Assembly (NCBI GenBank): GCA_039698055.1
Contig: JBDKTL010000039.1
Coordinates: 1-64,000 of the forward strand
Source: Methanoregula sp.
GTDB lineage: Archaea > Halobacteriota > Methanomicrobia > Methanomicrobiales > Methanospirillaceae
Direction of reading: 5' to 3'
Length of the DNA stretch: 64,000 bases
Under the pieces are notes generated by a model, which was not told the DNA's origin, made no database searches, and saw only the letters and a program-made list of their open reading frames with translations. How positions within the stretch are numbered: the first letter of the stretch is position 1; each line of letters opens with the position of its first letter. Position numbers and translations under genes: made by a program. Positions 7,044 through 19,659 of this stretch are shown in pieces.

Positions 7044-7787
7044 ATGAGTCTGTTCCCAAAGAAACATTTTATCTGGTTTTTTGACTCAATAGCCCCCAGC
7101 AGGTACCTGCTGAAGTTCCGTAAACTGGCAGTTTTTGAACCATTTGTGGGCAACGATATTGCCAACCGGGGCAGGCTTTCCCATTACGGGCGCACCGATC
7201 GCAAGCAGTTTGCCACGTCCTTAAAAAAGATCAAGTCCGAAACCGAACTGCTCCTTGAGGATATCGAGGCGTACCATATCCACATGGCGGTAAAAATCAC
7301 GCAGAAAGTGCCCGGCGACATCGCGGAAGTCGGCGTGTACAAGGGCGGATCGGCAAAGATCATCTGTGCGGCAAAAGGGGACAAACCCCTCCACCTGTTC
7401 GATACGTTCGAAGGGCTCCCGAAAGTGGACGATGTCGATATGGTCTGGCCGTTCTACGAAGGAAAGTTTGCCGCGTCCTACGACAGCGTGAAGGCATATC
7501 TTGGGACAGAAAAGAACGTGCACTTTTACAAGGGCATTTTCCCCGACACGTCCGGGCCGGTAAAAGATACCCGGTTTTCGCTGGTGAATCTTGACGTGGA
7601 CACGTACGAGAGCACCAAAAAATGCATCGAGTTCTTCTACCCCCGTATGAGTTCCGGCGGCGTGATCATCTCCCACGATTATCTCACGGCACCCGGCGTG
7701 CAGAAAGCGTTTGACGAGTTCTTTGTCGATAAGCAGGAACCTGTTGTCGAAACCGCCGGCTCCCAGTGCTTTGTCGTGAAAGTGTAG
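7044..7787 (+). CDS. TylF/MycF/NovP family O-methyltransferase
   Basis: VPGDIAEVGVYKGGS, LFDTFEGLP, LDVDTYEST and GGVIISHDY motifs. Confidence 0.88.
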   Translation: MSLFPKKHFIWFFDSIAPSRYLLKFRKLAVFEPFVGNDIANRGRLSHYGRTDRKQFATSLKKIKSETELLLEDIEAYHIHMAVKITQKVPGDIAEVGVYKGGSAKIICAAKGDKPLHLFDTFEGLPKVDDVDMVWPFYEGKFAASYDSVKAYLGTEKNVHFYKGIFPDTSGPVKDTRFSLVNLDVDTYESTKKCIEFFYPRMSSGGVIISHDYLTAPGVQKAFDEFFVDKQEPVVETAGSQCFVVKV

Positions 7788-8050
7788 GATCGAAACTACC
7801 TGCCCCCAAGCGATCACCAGCCGGTCTGTCTCACCACAAGAGATAAACCGGGACAAAATTCCCTGTTTTTCCCCATCTCCTTTCAAATGAAAACCGCTGG
7901 AACGCAACCGGTATCCCCAACCGCTGGTTCAGGACAGGTGCTCAGGGAATATCCACGAATGACCGTGAGACGCACTCCACAAAGGCTCACTAAAAAAAAA
8001 GATCTTTTATTTGACCGCCGTCACGCGTCCATCGGTTGTGCCCACAACCA

Positions 8051-8230
8051 TTACTCTTTGACAATCAGGATACCAAATACCAGTGCCATCAGCCCGGCGA
8101 GAAGGACAACAATCCCGATGAGTCCCTTGACCGCGATAATGACATCCGGCAAAAATATCCAGATTGCATATCCGCCGATGGCGATCAGCACCAGCCCGGC
8201 AATCAATGCGAAAATACCCATCTTATCCAT
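8051..8230 (-). CDS. Small two-TM membrane protein
   Basis: 59 aa from MDKMGIFAL with two hydrophobic helices; GGTGA RBS-like sequence upstream. Confidence 0.65.
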   Translation of the reverse strand: MDKMGIFALIAGLVLIAIGGYAIWIFLPDVIIAVKGLIGIVVLLAGLMALVFGILIVKE

Positions 8231-8540
8231 TCTTTTTTCACCTATCACCGTTAGAGAATCCGACTTAATAAGCCTGTTGACCGTGTGTATTTTTGATAGG
8301 AAAATCTTGAGAATCTGAAATTTTCTGTCTCTCTGATTTTTTTTGTGATCCGGCCGGTCTGGAAATCCGGGCCATCTTTTCCGGATTACCACCGGTTACC
8401 AGATGCCGGTCCAATCCTGCGGCAAGTTCTTTTTCGTGTGAGGAGCCCGGGGGAATCGGGGTTTTGGAAAGGAGGTATTGCCGGATTGAAATCTGTGGGG
8501 AGAAGTATAGTGGAAAGAGGGAGTTCATATGCCGTGAAGA

Positions 8541-9152
8541 TCACCGCGTATTGTCGGGCCCGATCAGCAGGAGTCTCTGTACTGCATCGATCCAGATCTT
8601 TTTTGCCGCATCCACACCCATCTCCAGGAAGTCGGAACTGGTGAGCAGGCCCATGGACATTGCGATGATCATATAGGTGGCTGTATCGGGATCTACCTCG
8701 CGCGACACGTTTCCCCTGGCTTTCACTCTGGCAAGGCAGTCGCGGATGAGAATCCGGCAGTTATCAAAGATGTGGATAAATTCCCCACGGTATTTTGGAT
8801 CCTGAGGCCTTCGGGTAGGCAGCAGGAAGAAGATACTCGCATAGGGTTTCTGCTGCTCAAAGAGCAGCTCGGCGAGATTACGGATAATGAGATGGATATC
8901 CTCATCCTGTGCAAGTATTGTTTCAAGCCCGGCCTGGATATTCTGGACTACTTCGAGAACCACATCACGCAACAGCGCCTCCCGGTTCTCGAAGTAACTG
9001 TAAAGAGCGGGTTTTGAAACACCGACATTCTGGGCAATTGCATCGAGCGTCACCGCGTCCCACCCGATTTCGGCGGCTACATCAAGAGCTGCAGCAATGA
9101 TTTTTTTCTTTGCATCTTCGCGGTATTCCGTATTAATCCGTGGCATTCTCAT
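8541..9152 (-). CDS. TetR/AcrR family transcriptional regulator
   Basis: N-terminal HTH (TLDAIAQNVGVSKPALYSYFENRE); divergent from the RND transporter gene. Confidence 0.92.
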   Translation of the reverse strand: MRMPRINTEYREDAKKKIIAAALDVAAEIGWDAVTLDAIAQNVGVSKPALYSYFENREALLRDVVLEVVQNIQAGLETILAQDEDIHLIIRNLAELLFEQQKPYASIFFLLPTRRPQDPKYRGEFIHIFDNCRILIRDCLARVKARGNVSREVDPDTATYMIIAMSMGLLTSSDFLEMGVDAAKKIWIDAVQRLLLIGPDNTR

Positions 9153-9240
9153 CTCTTTTTTGGGTTTACGGTATATTCATATTTCGTTCTTTCCAGTTAC
9201 TTAACGTGTATTAATCCAATTTACTAATAATTAAATAATC

Positions 9241-9254
9241 TTAATGTACATTAA
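9241..9254. promoter_or_regulatory. Perfect 14-bp palindrome, candidate TetR operator
   Basis: TTAATGTACATTAA in the AT-rich divergent promoter region between tetR and the RND gene. Confidence 0.4.
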
Positions 9255-9593
9255 TTATTGCGGAGGGACATGAAACCCGCACTGCACAGGAAATACCGGA
9301 GAAGATGGCGATTTGTTTGCAGGAAAAAAGACGAAAAGGATTCAGGTAGCGCGAGCAGAACACCGAAAACGCAACAGGATATGGCAGGACACTGCAGCTA
9401 GCGGGCATTTCGCGTGGAACCCCCCTTGAGTATACCCCCAATGATAAATGACACCGTGGCGGCCCGGCTGCGAATCACCGGACGGGAAGCGATTGCAATG
9501 AGAGAACCGGTCACTGTAAGATGAGCGGGATCATCAGCACAAAGACAGGTTACCGGTTCCTGGTTGACGACTGCCAGATATGGAAAGATACCG

Positions 9594-11912
9594 ATGATAA
9601 AAGAACTCTTTGAAGGCATCGCGAATACGATCATCGGGAAGCCGAAGCTGGTTGCCGGCTTGGTCCTGGTCCTTTTCTGTATCGGTCTCTACGGAGTGAC
9701 CATGCTTAGCATGGAGACGGGGTGGGAAACCTACATCGACAAGGACACCCCCGGTGGAGCCCTTCAGGCAAAATATGAAGATCACTTCCAGTCAGATACA
9801 ATCATTCTCATTGTTGAAGCCAGTGACCCGATGAGCCCAAATGTCCTTTCATATATCAATACTCTCGAAACGGATTTCCGGCAGCAACAGAATATCCAGA
9901 GCGTAACCAGCATTGTCGACGTGCTGAAAAGTGCCAATGGCGGGGCGCTGCCCTCATCAAAGGCTGAAACAGTGCGCATGGTCAATGCACTTCCCAAAAG
10001 CACCCGCGAACAGGTTGCACCTTCCAACGTGCTTACCCTTGTCCAAATCCAGCTCGCCCCGAAATTGTCCGATACCGTTCAGAAATCCGTGCTGGACAAT
10101 GTGGCATCGATTATCGAAAATTCCAACCCGCCAGCTGGAATAAAAGTGGAAATCTCCGGCACCCCGGCATTCACCCAGCAGATGAAGGAGGGACTTACGA
10201 GCAATATGGGCATCCTTATCGGAGGAGCCATGGTCCTGATGATCATCACGATGGGGATCCTCTTTTCCTACGTCCGGTACCGGTTCATGCCGGTCATCCT
10301 CGTCGGGATCGGTCTTGTGATCTCACTGGGCCTGATGGGACTCGCCGGAATCCACCTGAACATGGCGGTGATCGGGGCTTTCCCGGTACTGATCGGCCTT
10401 GGGATCGATTATGCAATCCAGTTCCATGCCCGGTTCGACGAGGAGATCAGGAAGGGATCGATTGAGGATGCAGTCTTGGTAACGGTGACCCGCACCGGCC
10501 CTGCCGTCATGTACGCGATGCTTGCTACCTGCATGGGTTTTCTTGCAATGTTTGTATCGGATGTTCCCATGATCCGCTCGTTCGGCCTCGTGGCGATTAT
10601 GGGGATTTTTACCTGTTACTGGGTTTCGTGCATTGGTATGCCCACGCTTGGTCTCCTGCTGAAATACCAGCCCAAGCAGCAAAAAACCGACACCTGCTAT
10701 GCCGTGGGGACGGATGCGTGCGATACAATCATCGGGAACCCGGAAAAAAACCGGAACACGAAGAACAGGAAGAAGAGTTCCTTCTCCTATGGGAAGTTTC
10801 TCACGGACACTTCGGTAAAGATTGCAAAGAACCCGGTACCGGTCCTGCTCCTGGCCGGTCTTATCGCACTGATTGGGTTCCAGATCGATCCGAACATCCC
10901 GGTGCAATCGGATGAGAACTCAATGGTTCCCTCGGGTATGCTGGCCAAGATCAATATCGACAAGGTCACCCGCATCATGGGATCGACCGATACCGCAGAC
11001 TTCCTTGTACAGGGTTCGCGGGTGACTGACCTTGACACCGTGATCTGGATGAAGGAGTTCCAGGAGTACGAACTGTCGCACCATCCGGAACTCACCGCAT
11101 CCACAAGCATCGCCACCTATGTTCTCCAGTATAATGGCGACGTGATGCCGGAGACTCAGGGAGGGCTCAATGCCGTGCTGGAGAATATCCCGGATGATAC
11201 CAAAAAAACCTGTATCAGCGGATCGATGAGCGGAATCATCAGATTCAACACCATCAAACTCGCAATGGGACAAAAGAGTACCCTAAAAGAGCAGATGAAC
11301 AAGGATATCAGGTTCCTCGAACCCCCGATCGGCATTACCATAACTCCCGCAGGAAATTTTGAGCTGTATACCATGCTGCTGCGATCCCTCTCGGATTCCA
11401 AGGAGACCATGACGTTCCTCGGATTCATCTTTGTCTTCGTCTTCCTCATCCTTGTGTACCGGCACTTCGATGCAGTCTCGCCGATCATCCCCATCATTTT
11501 TGTCGTGGGCTGGAATGCTGTCATGATGTATATCCTGGGCATCGACTATACGCCGCTCACCGCCACCCTGGGATCAATGACGATTGGGGTCGCTGCCGAA
11601 TATACGATCCTCGTCATGGAACGGTATGCCGAGGAGGAGGAGCGGACGCACGATCCCATCGCCGCCATCCAGGAAAGCGTGCAGAAGATCGGCACCGCCA
11701 TCACGGTTTCGGGGCTTGCCACGTTCTTCGGGTTCTCGGCTCTCTGCCTCGCTACATTTCCCGTCATCGCCAATTTCGGCACAACGACCCTGATCGCTGT
11801 GGCATTCTCCCTGATTGGTGCGATCTTTGTCATGCCCGCGGTGCTCTCGCTGTTCGGCAGCTTCTCCAAATGGCTTGAGCGGAGAAAAGCAGGGGAAAAG
11901 GTATCGGGGTGA
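9594..11912 (+). CDS. RND superfamily (HAE3/MMPL-like) transporter
   Basis: Duplicated architecture of an extracytoplasmic domain plus TM bundle; GLGIDYAIQ and GVAAEYTIL motifs. Confidence 0.9.
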   Translation: MIKELFEGIANTIIGKPKLVAGLVLVLFCIGLYGVTMLSMETGWETYIDKDTPGGALQAKYEDHFQSDTIILIVEASDPMSPNVLSYINTLETDFRQQQNIQSVTSIVDVLKSANGGALPSSKAETVRMVNALPKSTREQVAPSNVLTLVQIQLAPKLSDTVQKSVLDNVASIIENSNPPAGIKVEISGTPAFTQQMKEGLTSNMGILIGGAMVLMIITMGILFSYVRYRFMPVILVGIGLVISLGLMGLAGIHLNMAVIGAFPVLIGLGIDYAIQFHARFDEEIRKGSIEDAVLVTVTRTGPAVMYAMLATCMGFLAMFVSDVPMIRSFGLVAIMGIFTCYWVSCIGMPTLGLLLKYQPKQQKTDTCYAVGTDACDTIIGNPEKNRNTKNRKKSSFSYGKFLTDTSVKIAKNPVPVLLLAGLIALIGFQIDPNIPVQSDENSMVPSGMLAKINIDKVTRIMGSTDTADFLVQGSRVTDLDTVIWMKEFQEYELSHHPELTASTSIATYVLQYNGDVMPETQGGLNAVLENIPDDTKKTCISGSMSGIIRFNTIKLAMGQKSTLKEQMNKDIRFLEPPIGITITPAGNFELYTMLLRSLSDSKETMTFLGFIFVFVFLILVYRHFDAVSPIIPIIFVVGWNAVMMYILGIDYTPLTATLGSMTIGVAAEYTILVMERYAEEEERTHDPIAAIQESVQKIGTAITVSGLATFFGFSALCLATFPVIANFGTTTLIAVAFSLIGAIFVMPAVLSLFGSFSKWLERRKAGEKVSG

Positions 11913-11916
11913 GCGA

Positions 11917-13527
11917 ATGAAAAAAGGTTACACAATCGTACTTACCTCTGACAGGACCCTCATGAGTGAATATTCGGGGAATATATTCTTTGGGTTCTCA
12001 GCCAGCGCTCCACGAGGATATGTGCCGGACTGGTTCTATTTCCACTTTCTCTGCCCGTCTGTCCCGGTAAATGAAGAGAACGGCGAAGTGGTTTATGCTC
12101 CGGTTGGGTTGAGAAAGATTGAAGCGAAGCTTCTGGAATCTGGCTTTCGCAGAGATGAAGTAATTATTGCCCATCCTGATTACCTGAATAAGGCTGTCGG
12201 CAGAGACACGAAGGTAGTGAGCATAACTACCTTTGATCCTCTGGGAATTGGGCCTGTCACGTCCACATTTTCAAATCTTTTTGGCGGAAAGAAAGCGTAT
12301 AATACCCACAAATTTTTTGAACTTATGAAAAAGCCGGCTCTAAGGAAGGACGGCCTCAAAGTCATCGTGGGTGGCCCGGGCGCATGGCAGCTGATGGAAA
12401 GATATGTGCAAACGGCGTTTGGGATCGATACAGTTGTCCTTGGCGAAGCAGAGAATATCGTCGGCTCATTATTTAAAGACGCAATTGCAGGGAATCCGTT
12501 GCCACTCTTGGTCAGGGGAACCCCTGCAGGGGAAGAAGACATACCAAACGCTGTCGGGCCAACGATCTGTGGTCTTGTCGAAGCTTCCCGAGGATGCGGC
12601 AGAGGATGCGACTTCTGTATTCCAGCTCTTACGCAGTTGAAGTCCCGTCGTATTGATGACATTTTGGAGGAGGTGAAAGTTAATGTCCGGCACGGGCATG
12701 ATTCTGTCATCCTCCACTCTGAAGACATTTTCCGATACGGGGCAACCGGAATTTATCCAAATCAACAAGCCGTTGAGGATCTGTTCAAAGCCGTACTGAA
12801 TACAGAAGGGGTAAGACAGGTATCGGTAAGCCATGGGGCGTTTGCTTCCATCTTGTCTGCACCTACAATGTTACCCAATCTAAGCGAGCTGATGCATCTG
12901 GACAAGAAGAACTGGCGGGGCTACCAGGTTGGATTGGAGACGGGCAGCCCAAGACTCCTGAAGGATCACATGGCTGGTAAGTGTAAACCGTTCAAACCAG
13001 AAATGTGGCCTGAAGTAGTTACGCAGGCAACAGGCATCTCTAATGATGCAAACTGGTTGCCTGTCTCCACGCTCATCATGGGGCTGCCTGGAGAAACCTC
13101 CGACGACGTAACAAAAACACTGGAACTGATCGATGACTTAAAAAAATACCGGATCATGGTGTATCCGCTTCTCGCCGTTCCCACCGGAAGACTCTCAGAA
13201 AAAGACTGTACTGCAAAGGAGAACCTGCTGCCTGAGCACCTTGAACTTTTCCTCAGGTGCTGGGAAATCAACCTCGAACTCTGGCCTGAAATGTTCAACG
13301 AAGTGTCAGGTGGAATGAGGTATTCCCTTATCGAAAAAACAATTTTGAGAACCTTATTGAATACCGGGGTATTTTTGTCGTTGAGAAAAATCCGGGCCTG
13401 TGAGAGCAGTCTTTGGGATAACAGACCTTTCAAGCTCGGCAAAAACACATTTCAGGTTTCCAAATCGGGAAAATTGATGACTGTTGTTGAAGCCAGTTCA
13501 GGCAGCATGGATGGGAAGAAGGATTGA
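11917..13527 (+). CDS. B12-binding-domain radical SAM protein, Grs/Gms-like family
   Basis: CxxxCxxC (RGCGRGCDFC). IVLTSDRTLMS, APVGLRKIEAKL, VGGPGAWQ and GLETGSPRL match my recollection of the GDGT ring synthase / GMGT synthase family; the subfamily is not verified. Confidence 0.8.
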   Translation: MKKGYTIVLTSDRTLMSEYSGNIFFGFSASAPRGYVPDWFYFHFLCPSVPVNEENGEVVYAPVGLRKIEAKLLESGFRRDEVIIAHPDYLNKAVGRDTKVVSITTFDPLGIGPVTSTFSNLFGGKKAYNTHKFFELMKKPALRKDGLKVIVGGPGAWQLMERYVQTAFGIDTVVLGEAENIVGSLFKDAIAGNPLPLLVRGTPAGEEDIPNAVGPTICGLVEASRGCGRGCDFCIPALTQLKSRRIDDILEEVKVNVRHGHDSVILHSEDIFRYGATGIYPNQQAVEDLFKAVLNTEGVRQVSVSHGAFASILSAPTMLPNLSELMHLDKKNWRGYQVGLETGSPRLLKDHMAGKCKPFKPEMWPEVVTQATGISNDANWLPVSTLIMGLPGETSDDVTKTLELIDDLKKYRIMVYPLLAVPTGRLSEKDCTAKENLLPEHLELFLRCWEINLELWPEMFNEVSGGMRYSLIEKTILRTLLNTGVFLSLRKIRACESSLWDNRPFKLGKNTFQVSKSGKLMTVVEASSGSMDGKKD

Positions 13528-13528
13528 A

Positions 13529-15424
13529 ATGTCATTCAAAAGAATCTTACTGGTAAAACCTCCGGGAAGAAAAGGATTAGGTTTTGCTTCAGATGTAATT
13601 CCTATTGGTCTGGAGTACATCGCCGCCACTGTTGAGGACATCGTTGATGAAGTCACTATCATTGACCTGGACCTTGAACAGAGTTCCTTCCAATATTTTC
13701 TCGATACTCTCAACCCAGATCTGGTTGCCATCACGATGTCGGCAACCGACAATGAGGAAGGCCTGCGTCTCGCAAAAATCGCAAAGGAAAAAGGCTGTAC
13801 AACTGTTTTAGGTGGCTATCACCCGACCGCCATACCCGATGAACTGCTTTCATACCCGCAGGTTGATCTGATTGTCAGGGGTGAAGGGGAATACACGATG
13901 AAAGAGCTGGTTATGGAGGACTCTTTTGGAGATATCCCCGGCCTGTCCTACAAAAAGGATAAAAAGATAATTCACAATAGCGACCGTCCGCTCATTCAGG
14001 ATTTAGATGCCTTGTCATTTCCGGCACGGCATCTGAGGAGACATGTATACAAAGATCACATAATGGTCGACAAGGGCAGGGTGAGGGAAGTGATTACTAT
14101 GTCCCGGGGGTGCTGGGGACGGTGCAGCTTCTGCTGCGAACCTATGATGTGTCATGGGCATCAACGGTTTCGCTCACCCGAAAACGTGATGGGGGAATTA
14201 CTGGAAATAGTGTCGTTCCACAAGGGACGCCCCCTCTCCATCTTTGTAACGGACCCCAATTTTATGGGTTCTCCCAAAATGGTTGATCGCTTGTGTGATC
14301 TGTTGCACCGGCATACGTTAGACATAAAGTTCTCTGTTCTTGTGAGGGCAGACAGCGTCGTAAGAAATCCTGAGATTATCAAGAAGATGTGCGAGAACGG
14401 CATACTCAGCTATGAGATGGGAATTGAAAGCCCAAAAGCTGAAGACCTGAAGAATATCCGGAAAAACATTACCCTGGAGATGCAGGAGAACGCCGTGAAG
14501 ATATTGGCAGACCATGGTGCATGGGTCGGAGGCACCTTCGTCATCGGCTTGCCCGGCCAGACCGAAGAGGAGATAAAGAGATTTCCCACGTACGCCAAAG
14601 AAATCGGGTTAACGGGTGCAGCATTCGGCATAGCTACACCTTTCCCGGGAACTGAATTCTACAGAGATTTGGAGCAGGATGGTTTGATCGTTAAACGCGA
14701 CTGGATCAGGTACGATGAGATGCACTCTGTGTTCGAGTTGAAAGATGTGAGCAGGGAGAGGCTTGAGGAACTGGCAACCTACTGCCACGCCAGGTTCTGG
14801 ACGTTGGACGTGTTTATCAGGCAGGCCCGCCTCACTCTGAAACCCGGAGGGAAAGTTTTTTTGGAAGATTTTATTGGAGGCATACTCAATACTTTGAGGT
14901 TTGGCTGGAACACAACGGCGGATCTCCAGGCAGAAAACATTTTCACCCATATGAGGATTGCTGCCGAAGCTGGTGCAAACTCCTGTGTCGAAGAGTACAC
15001 AAGGGAGGTTGGTGTGCACAACATCATAGAATTTCCCCGGTTTTTGCTCAAGGTCTTAGGGGATCAGAAGATTCAATTTTCCATCACAAGGGAAGGCGTG
15101 CCGATTACAAGTTATATTATAAAAACCACAGCGAGTTCCGTGGAGTACGTGAAGGCCATATCGGGAAAGGTTGACGATGCGACCATCAATCTCGATGTTG
15201 ATCTCAATGATCTTGATCTGTCAAAGGGCACCACCAGTAACCGTGAGTTCCTGAAAAATTGTATCCGGGCGACAATCTCTCTACGGGGGATAGATGAAAT
15301 GTGGCAGAGGACGAGGTTGCTTGCCGCGATCGGTTTGGGATCAACCCAGATAATCATTGCTCATAATATCAGGACGTTGGAAAGGATAGGAAGTTATGCT
15401 GCTGTCATCGGGGGATCGAAATGA
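13529..15424 (+). CDS. Cobalamin-dependent (class B) radical SAM protein, probable methyltransferase, with a long C-terminal extension
   Basis: N-terminal B12-binding region (PIGLEYIAA, LGGYHPT, RGEGE), SRGCWGRCSFC, GIES and TPFPGTEFY; about 190 extra C-terminal residues. Confidence 0.85.
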   Translation: MSFKRILLVKPPGRKGLGFASDVIPIGLEYIAATVEDIVDEVTIIDLDLEQSSFQYFLDTLNPDLVAITMSATDNEEGLRLAKIAKEKGCTTVLGGYHPTAIPDELLSYPQVDLIVRGEGEYTMKELVMEDSFGDIPGLSYKKDKKIIHNSDRPLIQDLDALSFPARHLRRHVYKDHIMVDKGRVREVITMSRGCWGRCSFCCEPMMCHGHQRFRSPENVMGELLEIVSFHKGRPLSIFVTDPNFMGSPKMVDRLCDLLHRHTLDIKFSVLVRADSVVRNPEIIKKMCENGILSYEMGIESPKAEDLKNIRKNITLEMQENAVKILADHGAWVGGTFVIGLPGQTEEEIKRFPTYAKEIGLTGAAFGIATPFPGTEFYRDLEQDGLIVKRDWIRYDEMHSVFELKDVSRERLEELATYCHARFWTLDVFIRQARLTLKPGGKVFLEDFIGGILNTLRFGWNTTADLQAENIFTHMRIAAEAGANSCVEEYTREVGVHNIIEFPRFLLKVLGDQKIQFSITREGVPITSYIIKTTASSVEYVKAISGKVDDATINLDVDLNDLDLSKGTTSNREFLKNCIRATISLRGIDEMWQRTRLLAAIGLGSTQIIIAHNIRTLERIGSYAAVIGGSK

Positions 15425-16497
15425 GGATTGTTGACAGGGCCGTTTATGCGAAGAAACGTGTCAGAGACAAGGTTGGGAAGATACGGGAAACATACACTCT
15501 GCTCCGGGAACTCAGTTCCATAAACGGGGCAAACATCAGCCGCAGACTTCTGGACAGGGCGATGTACAGCGTTGAAACCCTGCCCCCCCTGGGAAAAGAG
15601 TACTGGTGGTTCCTGTTCTTTGGTAATGACGGGAGGCAGATGATGGTGCTGGTGTACCGCAAATTTGGGAAAGGCATGGTCTTCAACGGGAAGGAGGTTG
15701 TATTCAGGAAGGCAGACCAAGATACATTTCAAGCGGTGACAACCGGCTGGATCTATGATGGGAAGGGAATATACGACTTGGGAGTTTCAAATCCTGTAAT
15801 TGTATCTGCCCCTGGAGGAAAAGCGTTAGTCTCCCAAGTCTCCGACAGGAAGATGACCTTCAAGGGGAGTTTCCCTGAATATGAATTGAAGATAGGAGAT
15901 CTTGTCCATCTTAAAATGACAAAGGGAGAATCTCTCGAAAACGGGTGTGCCCATGGGGTTTACATCCCCCCCTTCGGAGCAGGATGGATCGATATCTTCT
16001 CAAACGCTGAGGGGGATGTGCTGGGAAAAAAGTTTGTGGGAACTGCCCATCTGCAAAAAGTCGTTGGCATAATGCCATATGGATCGTTCCATTGGGCACG
16101 AGTAGTCTTCCAAAACGGTTCAATATTCTCGTTTTTCTGCCTGAAAACCGGGGAAAAATCAAAAATGTATTTCCATATATCCATGAACTTCTATGATAAC
16201 CAGACCAGAAAGTACATCCGGTTCAAGAAACCACGACTGAAAATTTCAGAGGAAACGGATAGAATAACAACGTGGACTCTCAAGGGATGGGACGAGGAGA
16301 ATGAACTCAGCATAGTGTTGGAGACCTATGCAGACATAAAGTTCACTATGAATGGTGGCGGTTCCCAGGTGTATAATGAATATGCGGTCACGCCTACCCA
16401 ATTCAGGTTTACAACCAAAGACCAGACCATTACGTTGAAAGATTTAGGTAACGGGATAGGCACGTTTGAGGATGCTTATGGTTTGCCGGGATTCTAG
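15421..16497 (+). CDS. Hypothetical protein, possibly AttH/tocopherol-cyclase/lipocalin-like beta-fold
   Basis: ATGA overlap with the upstream gene; aromatic, beta-rich sequence (KEYWWFLFF, GTAHLQKV, FHWARVVFQNGS). The fold assignment is an inference. Confidence 0.6.
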   Translation: MRIVDRAVYAKKRVRDKVGKIRETYTLLRELSSINGANISRRLLDRAMYSVETLPPLGKEYWWFLFFGNDGRQMMVLVYRKFGKGMVFNGKEVVFRKADQDTFQAVTTGWIYDGKGIYDLGVSNPVIVSAPGGKALVSQVSDRKMTFKGSFPEYELKIGDLVHLKMTKGESLENGCAHGVYIPPFGAGWIDIFSNAEGDVLGKKFVGTAHLQKVVGIMPYGSFHWARVVFQNGSIFSFFCLKTGEKSKMYFHISMNFYDNQTRKYIRFKKPRLKISEETDRITTWTLKGWDEENELSIVLETYADIKFTMNGGGSQVYNEYAVTPTQFRFTTKDQTITLKDLGNGIGTFEDAYGLPGF

Positions 16498-16513
16498 GTT
16501 TGCCGGGATTCTA
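16480..16513 (+). repeat. 17-bp tandem direct repeat
   Basis: GGTTTGCCGGGATTCTA occurs twice in tandem across the stop codon of the 358-aa gene. Confidence 0.9.
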
Positions 16514-16775
16514 GTATTGTGCTATCCGGATGAAGGGGGCTTGTATGAGATCGATGGCAGTGCTGTTAGTACAGGACAATTTCAATTCTCATGCTACAAG
16601 TACAGGAGGAACGAAATTGGTATCTTTAGATCCAATGAAATGGATTGTTACTTCATATTCAACATCTCATGAGGGTATGGAGATGATTCATCATTATATC
16701 TCATCTCCGTTCCAGGATTGTCCGTACCTGTCCGATGAATAAAACATCCCTTAATTATCGCAAAGGTCAACAAGC

Positions 16776-18431
16776 GTGGTCACACAAATCCAACGGTTCT
16801 CCCAGATTGTCAAAATCCTGAGCAAATACGGTTTTGGCATAGTGCTGGAAAAGCTGTTTCCGGGACAGTTCCGCGTACGGTTTTTGTTCCGCGGTGTTTC
16901 TCCCGAACCGTCTACCATATTCGAACGGATGCGGCGTGCCATTGAAGAACTCGGCCCGGCCTTTGTGAAGTTCGGGCAGATCATGAGCACGCGGACAGAC
17001 CTCTTACCCGCGGAGATGATCACACAGCTAAAAAAACTGCAGGACCATGTAAAGCCCGTGTCATTCTCTGAAGTCCGCCCCGTGATCGAAGAGTGCTGCC
17101 CGTATCCTTGTGAATGGTTCCGTGAGATCGATGAGATCCCTGTAGCCTCCGCCTCAATTGCACAGGTCCATAGTGCAATCCTCATGGATGGGACACGAGT
17201 AGCCCTCAAAATACAGCGCCCTGGTATCGGGGATGTTATCGAGACCGATCTCCATATCCTGCAGTCAATGGCGGAACGGATTGAACAGGTCTTTCCTGAC
17301 GCGCAGGTATACAACCCGACCGGCATGGTAAAGGACTTCGCACACCAGATACGAAAAGAGCTCGATTTCCTCCAGGAAGCGAGGACCGCGGAACGGATGA
17401 GGCATAACTTCAGGGATATGACCGGCATCCACTTTCCGAGAATGTACAGGGAATACTCATCTTCCCGTATGCTTGTCATGGAGTTCATTGAGGGGGTTCG
17501 TATCGATAACCTGGAAGAGATATCCGCAATGGGACTTGACCCACACGAGATCGGGGCCAGGGGTTTTCATGCCTACCTCAAGATGATCTTTGAAGACGGA
17601 TTCTTCCATGGCGATCCGCACCCGGGCAACCTGCTGGTCACAAAGGAGGGTACCATTGTCGTTCTGGACTTCGGGATTGCTGGGATCCTCCGTCCGGAAA
17701 AGCGACAAAATTTCATCAACTTCCTCTTTGCCCTGATGAATGAGGACACAGAACTGATAATACGGTCCCTGGAAGGATTCGGGGTCGTGATACCCGCTGA
17801 AAACCGGGAACCGCTGCAGGACGATCTCTTTGTCCTGATACAGAACCTGGGTCTGGGTCAGAACATCTCCCGGTTCAATTTTGCGCTGTTCGTGACCGAG
17901 CTCTCGGAAGTAATGCGCCGTTACCGGATCAAGGTGCCGATGAACCTGATGCTGCTCTTAAAGGTCCTTGTCATGATACTCGATATCGGTGTCCGCCTCG
18001 ATCCTGAGTTCAATATTGAGAAGGAGCTGTCCCCATATCTCGTGAGAATCGCACAAAAAAATACCTTCTCCGTCACCAGCGCAAAAAAGGTCACCGTCTC
18101 ACTGCTGGAGACCACGGATGCCATTCTCGATATGCCCCGTCATCTCAACCTGATGCTGAGGCGGTTCTCCACGGGCACGTTCCGCCTGGAACTTATAGAT
18201 AAGGATCTCCGGGAATTCCAGGTGGCGCTTGATTTGGCAAGCGATAAGTTCATGATCGGCCTTGTTATTGGATCATTGGTTATCGGGTCTTCGCTGTTCC
18301 TCATGTCCATCCCCCTGGCCGTTCCTCCGGAAGTTTCGTGGATAGCGGTTGCCGGATATAGCGCTGCGGTGCTTGTGGGATTCTACGCAGTATATCACAT
18401 CATCTTCCTGAAATTCCGGCAGGAGCAGTGA
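16776..18431 (+). CDS. ABC1/AarF/UbiB family atypical kinase
   Basis: LGPAFVKFGQ, ASASIAQVH, VALKIQRP, FFHGDPHPGN and LDFG motifs; C-terminal TM helices. Confidence 0.93.
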   Translation: MVTQIQRFSQIVKILSKYGFGIVLEKLFPGQFRVRFLFRGVSPEPSTIFERMRRAIEELGPAFVKFGQIMSTRTDLLPAEMITQLKKLQDHVKPVSFSEVRPVIEECCPYPCEWFREIDEIPVASASIAQVHSAILMDGTRVALKIQRPGIGDVIETDLHILQSMAERIEQVFPDAQVYNPTGMVKDFAHQIRKELDFLQEARTAERMRHNFRDMTGIHFPRMYREYSSSRMLVMEFIEGVRIDNLEEISAMGLDPHEIGARGFHAYLKMIFEDGFFHGDPHPGNLLVTKEGTIVVLDFGIAGILRPEKRQNFINFLFALMNEDTELIIRSLEGFGVVIPAENREPLQDDLFVLIQNLGLGQNISRFNFALFVTELSEVMRRYRIKVPMNLMLLLKVLVMILDIGVRLDPEFNIEKELSPYLVRIAQKNTFSVTSAKKVTVSLLETTDAILDMPRHLNLMLRRFSTGTFRLELIDKDLREFQVALDLASDKFMIGLVIGSLVIGSSLFLMSIPLAVPPEVSWIAVAGYSAAVLVGFYAVYHIIFLKFRQEQ

Positions 18432-18555
18432 AATGTAACAAATTTCCGGGTATTATCTATTCAACCTCGCGCTGATTGCAGTATGAGTAAAAATCCTTCT
18501 TCACGATATTTTAAATTGAAACAAACGGGAGAAATATCCTGGACTCCATTCAGTA

Positions 18556-19206
18556 TCAGGGATCCCGCAGTTCCATAACAGTCGCACGGGCCTGGCAGAC
18601 CGTGACACAAAGCCCGCAACCCAGACATAAACCGGAATTGTACAGCATCTGGCCGTCAACAAATGTCCGGGCATCAAAAATACATCTCTCAACACATTTG
18701 CCACAATTGATGCATAAGTCCTTGTCAGTCACTGCGACATATTCAGAGCGAACCACCAGATCCCGGCGATTGTATACCTTCATGAGCTGAAGGTCATGGC
18801 AGCAGCAGGGACAACAGTTGCAGAGTGCATAAATTTCATGGTCGGGCTGGTAAAGGGTAAGATGAATAAGACCGTATTCATCCGCTTTACGTACTATATC
18901 CGCAGCCTCTGATAAGGACACCGAATGTGCCTGGCCTTTTCCTATCGCATGCTCACCCGTCTTGTTGAGTAAAAAACAGACTTCGAGGGGTTTGTTGCAT
19001 CGGGAATAATGTACTCTGCAGCCACATTTCTGCACTGCTATGGATTGCGCATTGCGTAAAATATCCAGGACCTGTTCAGATGGCAGCACCCATTGTTGAG
19101 CAGACAAGGATTCACGGGTGGGGATTATTTTTGAAGAAAATGAAATCAGTCCGTGATCCAACCACCTGTCATATTTTATCAGTCTTTCTTTCAGGAAATC
19201 CTCCAT
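18556..19206 (-). CDS. 4Fe-4S dicluster (ferredoxin) domain protein
   Basis: CINCGKCVERC and CLGCGLCVTVC plus CGCR and CNCCPCCC motifs. Confidence 0.88.
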   Translation of the reverse strand: MEDFLKERLIKYDRWLDHGLISFSSKIIPTRESLSAQQWVLPSEQVLDILRNAQSIAVQKCGCRVHYSRCNKPLEVCFLLNKTGEHAIGKGQAHSVSLSEAADIVRKADEYGLIHLTLYQPDHEIYALCNCCPCCCHDLQLMKVYNRRDLVVRSEYVAVTDKDLCINCGKCVERCIFDARTFVDGQMLYNSGLCLGCGLCVTVCQARATVMELRDP

Positions 19207-19420
19207 ACTCTACAAATGTGATGTCTATGTTCGCTGATTAAAAAGTTGCTCATGAACCGGTTCTGGTATATTACATCAGGAACCGGCCGGGTGAGAAATG
19301 AAATTCTGATCGTACGAAACCACCTAAAATGGAAAAAACGGGAATTGGGAACTGGTAACAGTCCCGATTGTTCAGTTTATCCCCCCATCCCTGTAATGTG
19401 TGATTGTTAAAGAGAAATGT

Positions 19421-19659
19421 AATCTCAAAACAACGCCGCGTGTGCAGCTTCAAGTGTTCGCATCTCTCTGCTTGTATAAGCGGCAACCGGCTAAGAGAAC
19501 CCAACCGAAAAACTCAATGGACCCTATGATCTCCTCCCCACTATACCGACCAGTACTAGTACCTGTGAATGAAGGTGGTGTCCTCACTCCAGAACGTCGA
19601 TTCATCCCTTGTTGTCGGTTCGCATTATCGACCGATGACGGGAGCCGTACCAAGAGATT
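19421..19659 (-). ncRNA. Putative structured non-coding element (~240 nt), possibly derived from an IS non-coding end
   Basis: Several nested hairpins found by eye and terminal AATCTC/GAGATT inverted hexamers; no credible ORF. The strand is inferred from G-U pairing. Confidence 0.4.

Follow-up and report, generated by a model that had tools for sequence, protein, structure and literature searches.

What do the genes at positions 9594–16497 of a Methanoregula sp. contig (JBDKTL010000039.1) do to the membrane lipids of their host, and why does a transporter gene stand at their head? Positions are those of the 64,000-nt stretch of the contig that was analysed, referred to here as the window. A preliminary description, made from the sequence, had read the locus as a TetR-governed cluster for tetraether remodelling and export, in which a first radical SAM protein (rSAM-1, here P0003) cyclises or cross-links the lipid tails, a second (rSAM-2, P0004) methylates them and an RND transporter (P0002) moves the product, with a 358-aa AttH-like protein (P0005) completing the set. 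We consider it probable that the genes form a TetR-repressed operon, encoding an HAE3-family RND transporter, a Grs-like radical SAM protein, Ted and Hgs, that remodels existing glycerol dialkyl glycerol tetraether (GDGT) membrane lipids. The idea of tetraether remodelling was upheld by the matches to Ted and Hgs and by the lipid-gene neighbourhoods (Tes, GGR, UbiA, GT2), and the proposed cross-linking and methylation chemistry was not supported. Ted of Ca. Bathyarchaeota B1_G15 (DRO69_02625) is a B12-type radical SAM protein, a tetraether desaturase that desaturates GDGTs, and Hgs hydrates the double bonds made by Ted to give hydroxy-GDGTs (Garcia, Chadwick, Nayak, Welander, bioRxiv 10.1101/2025.10.20.683597; hereafter the preprint, drawn on here in part). 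In B1_G15 and on a Guaymas Basin scaffold the genes make up a grs-ted-hgs cluster, in which ted and hgs adjoin grs and overlap each other (bioRxiv 10.1101/2025.10.20.683597).

P0005 matched no Pfam or NCBIfam model. Its AlphaFold model (pLDDT 88.6) matched AttH (2ich_A) with Z 22.3 and an rmsd of 3.2 over 270 aligned residues, confirming the AttH-like label that the protein had been given, and matched kievitone hydratase (7a0q_A) with Z 20.1; Foldseek gave E 3.9e-8 for the fold. Among 202 homologues of P0005, one 90%-identity cluster includes RLI46640.1, “hypothetical protein DRO69_02630”, which is, judged by locus-tag order, the product of the gene after ted in B1_G15. In a pairwise comparison P0005 was 55% identical to this protein over 341 aa (E 1e-141), passing the threshold for Hgs homologues used in the preprint (BLASTP E ≤ 1e-80, at least 300 aa; bioRxiv 10.1101/2025.10.20.683597). 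The gene also lies directly downstream of ted, with an ATGA overlap in the window and an 8-nt overlap on metagenome contig L055, which encodes a protein 100% identical to DRO69_02630. P0005 matches Hgs as an orthologue and is a predicted GDGT hydratase. In a midpoint-rooted tree of 53 Hgs sequences, the Methanomicrobiales-type sequences formed one group adjoining metagenome and Bathyarchaeia sequences. Hgs homologues 42–51% identical and without Ted also occurred on contigs of metagenome-assembled genomes (L017, L026, L030, L031, L032 and L037), often in tandem with a paralogue 24–26% identical; taken as given, the labels of these contigs are Parcubacteria, Iainarchaeum, Saccharibacteria, Chloroflexota and Patescibacteria.

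P0004 has matches to PF04055 (Radical_SAM, 75.2 bits) and PF02310 (B12-binding, 66.9 bits), and its translation carries the CX3CX2C motif as C-WGR-C-SF-C. On L055 the order is a grs-like gene, a B12-type radical SAM gene (product P0409), hgs, and a small regulator gene on the opposite strand. P0004 was 61% identical to P0409 over 562 aa (717 bits), and through P0409, taken as DRO69_02625 by adjacency and locus-tag order, it passes the Ted threshold of the preprint (E ≤ 1e-100, at least 500 aa; bioRxiv 10.1101/2025.10.20.683597). Going by this comparison, rSAM-2 is most likely a tetraether desaturase and not a methylase.

The neighbourhood of hgs was compared across 44 loci from species-level genomes, 80 metagenome loci and the window, merged at an Hgs identity of at least 97% into 100 groups. 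Families were named by scanning a representative of each cluster against Pfam and NCBIfam, and the group counts are lower bounds, obtained by longest-ORF (open reading frame) calling with overlaps of up to 150 nt allowed on many short contigs. A Ted homologue lay directly upstream of hgs on the same strand in 65/100 groups (73 groups having at least 2 kb of upstream sequence) and a Grs-like gene was present in 34. A small TrmB-like winged-helix regulator gene followed hgs in 33 groups. Less frequent were UbiA prenyltransferase (15), RND (11), SPASM or Tes-type radical SAM (11), GT2 (9), MarR-like (8), GGR (6), UbiB (4) and TetR (2) genes. Within the order, the Hgs query matched one of 151 genomes, the window's own; among 61 genomes of the genus there was one match for Hgs, one for the Grs-like protein and two for Ted. 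The second Ted genome (G147) carries an RND gene, two receiver-domain (REC) genes, a Grs remnant and ted, inside which the contig ends; the Hgs genome counts are lower bounds because hgs of G147 is probably unassembled. This distribution, with the somewhat lower GC content across 12500–16500, would fit an accessory, horizontally moving cassette.

The chemistry proposed earlier, in which rSAM-1 cyclises or cross-links GDGT tails as a Grs or Gms enzyme, rSAM-2 is a class B methylase and the RND protein exports the product, has some arguments on its side. The combination of B12-binding and radical SAM domains is common to methylases, HpnR and further C- and P-methylases are among the best NCBIfam matches of rSAM-2, none of them reaching its cut-off, and Ted itself was found as a distant homologue, 31% identical, of Gmm, the methylase of glycerol monoalkyl glycerol tetraethers (bioRxiv 10.1101/2025.10.20.683597). 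However, rSAM-2 is 61% identical to the ted-position gene product, as against the 31% between Ted and Gmm, and Ted desaturates GDGTs. Coupling to an AttH-type hydratase, kept by its homologues in the 65 groups, is sensible for an alkene-forming enzyme but not for a methylase, and rSAM-1 is without SPASM or Tes-like features. We give this chemistry very little credence.

The substrate is suggested by the rest of the genome. Contig C46 encodes Tes (NF045702, 736 bits against a cut-off of 450; PDB 7tol, E 1.8e-150), and GDGT-0 is therefore the expected substrate. Alternatively, the enzymes might have a different isoprenoid as substrate, for instance archaeol or some other polyprenyl lipid: Ted showed low activity on archaeol, AttH-family enzymes hydrate carotenoids and other isoprenoids (bioRxiv 10.1101/2025.10.20.683597), and the Hgs homologues without Ted stand on DPANN- and CPR-labelled contigs. 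Against this, the characterised Ted/Hgs pair prefers GDGTs (bioRxiv 10.1101/2025.10.20.683597), and, besides Tes in this genome, the Methanoregula-labelled locus L001 has tes and GGR inside the cluster, between hgs and UbiB. We regard another isoprenoid substrate as highly unlikely. A literature search for hydroxy-GDGTs in Methanoregula returned no paper on the topic, judged by title and abstract.

P0003 gave a Radical_SAM match and a weak B12-binding match (PF02310, E 7.8e-4), and has CX3CX2C at residues 227–234. Its AlphaFold model (pLDDT 90.4) consists of a Rossmann-like N-domain, a radical SAM barrel and long C-terminal helices (residues 439–466 and 471–500). In domain, motif and helix this fits the architecture of GrsA and GrsB given in a review, namely a Rossmann-like B12-type N-domain, a partial TIM barrel with CX3CX2C and a C-terminal helix (PMC13459092, likewise drawn on in part). 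The top match of the model was the B12-type radical SAM protein MgmA (9ccb, Z 23.8), followed by MiaB and RimO at about Z 20 and OxsB, TsrM and TokK at Z 14–17.5; since MgmA is the MCR glutamine methylase, 9ccb was rejected as a Grs structure. A PDB sequence search returned RimO, MiaB and MgmA only, and the ESM Atlas only generic radical SAM clusters. Enzymes of the Gms or Tes type have a Tes-like core with an auxiliary-cluster (SPASM-type) region (PMC13459092). P0003 gave no match to SPASM, 7tol or the Tes model at the thresholds used, the genome's own Tes having the high score given above, and its fold is of the B12-type radical SAM class; a Gms-like cross-linking identity found no support. 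Of the label “Grs/Gms-like” the first half was retained, as an architecture, and the second was not. The missing NCBIfam matches of P0003–P0005 are uninformative here, because no Grs, Ted or Hgs model is hit even by the proteins of B1_G15.

A FastTree phylogeny was computed for 54 sequences: two Ted proteins as outgroup and 52 Grs-like proteins with a minimum length of 430 aa, among which there was no characterised GrsA or GrsB. The Grs-like genes that stand beside ted/hgs in Bathyarchaeota, ANME-1 and others, including that of L055, formed a clade of 33 (clade A; support 1.0). P0003, which is 37% identical to the product of the grs-position gene of L055 (E 8e-99), fell outside this clade, joining three Bathyarchaeia proteins and sequences of Methanoregula type in a group of seven (clade B; support 1.0). 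Its closest neighbours are Nitrososphaerota-labelled proteins and the “distal” paralogues of L005, L008 and L081, in a wider grouping that is weakly supported (0.34–0.75). The gene is facultative, some close strains having it and others not. In run X3 (a DNA contig from another study) and in a minor contig of run X1, 11888 is connected to 13534 through 183 nt of other sequence, and in L125 and the same-genus L156 the gene is reduced to an 88-aa C-terminal remnant. This polymorphism supplies natural variants for the comparison of lipid profiles. In three ANME-1/Methanophagales-labelled loci (L009, L038, L071) and one Thermoplasmatota-labelled locus (L019), hgs comes straight after a Grs-like gene of clade A, without an intervening ted; either Hgs has another source of double bonds there, or the “Grs” enzymes are not ring-forming.

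The coordinates of the locus are collected in Table 1. Direct reading of the junctions, together with the ORF list, bore out the earlier statement that four genes are tightly coupled: the RND gene stops with TGA at 11910–11912, 4 nt before the ATG of rSAM-1 at 11917; rSAM-1 stops at 13525–13527, 1 nt before the ATG of rSAM-2 at 13529; and ted and hgs share ATGA at 15421–15424. The ORF list and translations likewise agree with a divergent TetR gene and a co-oriented UbiB/ABC1 gene after the cluster, the divergent intergenic span being 441 nt and the gap from hgs to UbiB 278 nt. For rSAM-2, the database gene call begins earlier and gives 645 aa; since its relatives have about 630 aa, we favour the ATG at 13529.

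Table 1. Features of the Methanoregula sp. locus (positions in the window).
Feature	Position	Strand	Basis and remarks
TetR-family regulator	8541–9152	-	PF00440 (TetR_N), 53 bits; divergent from the operon
Candidate TetR operators	9201–9254		14-bp palindrome 9241–9254 and 3-mismatch copy 9201–9214
HAE3-family RND (MMPL-type) transporter P0002	9594–11912	+	TIGR00921, 492 bits; first gene of the operon
Grs-like B12-type radical SAM protein P0003, 536 aa, clade B paralogue, facultative	11917–13527	+	Radical_SAM; CX3CX2C; model
Ted orthologue P0004, 631 aa, predicted B12-binding radical SAM tetraether desaturase	13529–15424	+	PF02310, PF04055; homology
Hgs orthologue P0005, 358 aa, predicted AttH-like hydroxy-GDGT synthase (hydratase)	15421–16497	+	Homology; AttH fold
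17-nt tandem duplication of the hgs 3' end, including the stop codon	16481–16514	+	Read from the sequence
UbiB/ABC1 atypical kinase, C-terminal hydrophobic helices; membership uncertain	16776–18431	+	PF03109, 261 bits

The transporter belongs to the HAE3 family, P0002 scoring 492.1 bits against TIGR00921 (cut-off 351.9) over residues 17–753. We know of no characterised substrate for this family. RND genes whose products are 75–91% identical to P0002 lie upstream of ted, with or without the Grs-like gene, in 6/6 contigs of the lineage that reach far enough upstream (the window, L001, L125, L127, L130 and L156); in the X3 variant the RND end is joined to the Ted start. In L001, L125, L130 and L156 the RND gene is separated from the Grs-like gene, or from what remains of it, by two receiver-domain genes. 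Such single-domain receiver genes, one or two in number, follow the RND gene in relatives (L001 4985–6057; L125, L130, L156, L147) and have been lost in the window. The 2.26-Mb genome has three HAE3 genes. The two other paralogues (G000 C14 43336–45684 and C25 17811–20222) are 62–65% identical to P0002 and each follows a gene with a CARDB/NPCBM_assoc domain; the window RND gene, unlike both of them, has no CARDB-type partner. Farther afield, grs-ted-hgs is flanked in ANME-1 loci by HAE3 genes that are distant and split, accompanied by a CARDB/PGF-CTERM partner and a CBS protein; distant, split HAE3 genes, and other RND, MFS or ABC transporter genes, also occur near hgs in Hadesarchaea- and Aenigmatarchaeota-labelled loci. 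The word RND has no occurrence in the main text of the preprint, which mentions no such gene beside ted or hgs (bioRxiv 10.1101/2025.10.20.683597), and the RND-ted-hgs linkage goes beyond that text.

A copy of the TetR gene, 73–75% identical, is found at the same position in L001, so that within the lineage the regulator was seen in the window and in L001. A same-genus genome without the lipid genes (G169) has a TetR copy 69% identical beside an RND gene 80% identical, within a TetR-RND-REC module. The divergent promoter region contains a perfect 14-bp palindrome, TTAATGTACATTAA, with the 3-mismatch copy 40 nt upstream; it was spotted by reading the sequence and then confirmed by a motif count, and its core is partly conserved in L001. 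From its position and symmetry we infer that the palindrome is a candidate TetR operator. Between it and the RND start lies a leader of about 330 nt (9255–9593), partly conserved in L001, which holds a possible 46-codon basic ORF starting at 9270. Rfam gave no RNA family at E ≤ 0.1 in 8000–19500, the leader included.

Three explanations of the pump had to be weighed. One is that it handles the lipid itself, extracting, flipping or distributing GDGTs or hydroxy-GDGTs for Ted and Hgs, in the manner of HpnN, MmpL3 or the sterol transporters. P0002 has MMPL and sterol-sensing-domain similarity and weak matches to HpnN and BstA, and lies just 4 nt from the lipid enzymes; its lack of a CARDB partner, which both paralogues have, would suit a specialised role; unrelated HAE3 genes also recur near hgs in several lineages. 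However, its scores against the lipid-transporter models are far below the cut-offs (HpnN, 122 against 752; MmpL3, 23 against 1400), a membrane-spanning tetraether in a single-membrane organism would have no obvious export destination, and the TetR-RND pair of G169 occurs without lipid genes. A TetR gene beside an RND pump is, moreover, the classic efflux arrangement. We consider lipid handling by the pump distinctly unlikely.

Another explanation is that the linkage of TetR, RND and UbiB is meaningless, a mobile grs-ted-hgs cassette having landed downstream of an existing efflux module. This is consistent with the rarity of the cluster in the genus, with the lower GC content across 12500–16500 (0.45–0.50, against 0.52–0.54 in the flanks), with the variation among relatives of the RND-to-Ted interval and of the region 3' of hgs, with the duplication at the hgs end, which is a possible rearrangement scar, and with the occurrence of TetR-RND-REC alone in G169. 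Yet the RND-Ted linkage is kept in all six lineage contigs, at 73–91% protein identity, despite intergenic indels; other lineages have independently put different HAE3, MFS or ABC transporter genes beside hgs; and gaps of 4 nt and 1 nt would indicate selection for co-expression. A chance linkage is unlikely, though it has to be taken seriously.

The third explanation, amphiphile efflux, has a precedent. In T. aggregans an HAE3 transporter gene and a MarR regulator gene adjoin the GDGT methylase gene pgm; GDGT methylation induced by amphiphiles is also reported (bioRxiv 10.1101/2025.10.20.683597). Because of this precedent we favour a stress regulon, in which efflux and lipid remodelling answer to one ligand-sensing repressor, over lipid export, and judge transport of the product by the RND protein to be less likely than efflux of an amphiphile.

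The operon would then work as follows. Tes, encoded elsewhere in the genome, would make GDGT-0. Ted, as a cobalamin radical SAM enzyme, would take two hydrogens from the saturated biphytanyl chains without the use of oxygen, and Hgs, translationally coupled to Ted, would add water to the new double bond to yield hydroxy-GDGTs, these two activities being taken from the preprint (bioRxiv 10.1101/2025.10.20.683597). The Grs-like enzyme would probably add a further C–C or ring modification; it appears dispensable, because close strains lack the gene. TetR would probably bind the palindrome and release the four presumably co-transcribed genes on sensing a hydrophobic or amphiphilic, membrane-disturbing ligand, which the pump would most likely expel at the same time as the lipid enzymes adapt the membrane. 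In its most integrated form, which we put forward tentatively, a single TetR-gated membrane-stress regulon would turn one amphiphile or hydrophobic signal into both HAE3 efflux and in-place unsaturation, hydroxylation and possibly ring formation of GDGTs. In a bolder version, HAE3 itself would hand tetraethers to Ted and Hgs; if so, this would be the first substrate for the HAE3 family.

Several observations weigh against such an operon. P0409 is equated with DRO69_02625 through the 100% identical Hgs encoded next to it and not through a record of that name; the DRO69 name was absent from the ten Ted-like clusters that were looked up. The assayed Hgs is the Guaymas scaffold gene, whose scaffold name was absent among the 80 metagenome loci; P0005 was compared with the B1_G15 counterpart only. 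P0003 is distant from the syntenic grs product, at only 37% identity, and outside its clade. Across 37 Grs-like sequences, drawn from both clades, three cysteines besides those of CX3CX2C are conserved, C448 in all and C46 and C356 each in at least 90%; they may form an auxiliary metal site, which is not expected for Grs, described as being without auxiliary clusters (PMC13459092). The operator motif is not enriched in the window (3 matches against 1.97 expected). The frequency of RND genes near hgs, 11/100 groups against roughly 1–2% by chance per ~10-kb locus, was judged by our own rough expectation with no control set and includes related loci, which are not independent. The TetR-RND pair without lipid genes in a same-genus genome would allow the linkage to be a neutral insertion beside an efflux module. 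Two RNA-library runs yielded contigs that match the window at 100% identity over stretches of each of the six genes (with gaps, for example at 15220–15901), a weak hint of expression, but the runs belong to the study from which the source sample probably comes, and their contigs give neither strand nor co-transcription and might reflect DNA carry-over. Finally, the activities of the window enzymes are predictions made by comparison.

The UbiB gene was the remaining part of the proposed cluster. Its product matches PF03109 with 260.8 bits and TIGR01982 with 410 bits, and, as the latter is below the cut-off of 488, it is a member of the ABC1 family and not the ubiquinone UbiB equivalog. A copy 82% identical lies downstream of the cluster in L001, the two copies forming a distinct paralogue, and the genomes of the window and of L001 each hold a second UbiB elsewhere (64–66% identity). 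UbiB is also found near hgs in ANME-1 loci and one Bathyarchaeota locus. The link of the kinase to the lipid cluster was, however, not supported by its recurrence, in only 4/100 groups, and in L128, whose Hgs is the nearest to that of the window (90% identity), it is tes and not UbiB that comes after hgs. UbiB may be a member of the system, though this is not established. A 65-codon ORF (16546–16743) lies in the gap ahead of UbiB, and a TylF-type (macrocin O-methyltransferase family) methyltransferase gene (7044–7787) lies upstream of TetR, the latter not seen in the matching part of L001. DNA of this methanogen turned up in metagenome runs from wastewater, soil, sludge and groundwater, those aligned on the window being wastewater X1, X4 and X6 and soil X3 only.

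These results place an orthologue-level ted-hgs pair in a Methanomicrobiales methanogen. Hydroxy-GDGTs serve as temperature proxies, and their biological sources and regulation are only now emerging; if the membrane-stress regulon is real, mesophilic freshwater and wastewater methanogens would be a regulated source of them. With a TetR gene, a palindrome and a pump in one operon, the locus offers a regulatory handle by which chemically induced tetraether remodelling becomes testable for desaturation and hydroxylation. Remodelling of tetraethers in response to membrane-active chemicals has been shown so far only for methylation (bioRxiv 10.1101/2025.10.20.683597).

Among known systems, GrsA and GrsB, the GDGT ring synthases of Sulfolobus acidocaldarius (Zeng et al. 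2019, via PMC13459092), resemble P0003 in architecture, with the same kind of N-domain, barrel motif and long C-terminal helices; P0003 differs in its three extra conserved cysteines and in its methanogen host. The transporter shares with HpnN, MmpL3 and BstA the RND/MMPL fold, transmembrane domains of the sterol-sensing type and a place next to lipid-tailoring enzymes, but scores far below the cut-offs for those families and belongs to HAE3. To our knowledge, no ring-bearing GDGTs are known from the methanogen host of P0003. The nearest regulatory parallel is given by the cgm and pgm GDGT methylase loci, which carry MFS, ABC or HAE3 transporters and MarR regulators (bioRxiv 10.1101/2025.10.20.683597). 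As there, a B12-type radical SAM enzyme acting, by prediction, on GDGTs stands beside an efflux-type transporter (HAE3 also in T. aggregans) and a small-molecule-sensing repressor; in the window the chemistry would be desaturation and hydration instead of methylation, the repressor is TetR and not MarR, and the genes form one tightly coupled operon.

The closest relative is the grs-ted-hgs cluster itself, and the methanogen locus adds a member to this known system; contrary to the preliminary description, which knew of no such combination, it is not a new one, the core having been described in a preprint of October 2025 (bioRxiv 10.1101/2025.10.20.683597). The order of a Grs-like radical SAM gene, the B12-type radical SAM gene ted and the AttH-like hgs, with ted and hgs overlapping, is that of the published cluster (Fig. 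5A legend of the preprint) and of L055, and the protein identities (Hgs 55%, Ted 61%) and the AttH fold agree with it. In contrast to the assayed system, the enzymes of the window are known here from their genes alone. The host is a Methanomicrobiales methanogen with relatives labelled Methanoregula, the Grs-like gene comes from a different clade and is facultative, an HAE3 RND gene is fused in front of the operon, and a divergent TetR gene replaces the small TrmB-like regulator that follows hgs in a third of the groups. The features specific to the lineage are thus the fusion to a TetR-controlled HAE3 pump, an on/off Grs-like paralogue of another clade and a loosely linked UbiB paralogue, set around a core shared with Ca. 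Bathyarchaeota B1_G15.

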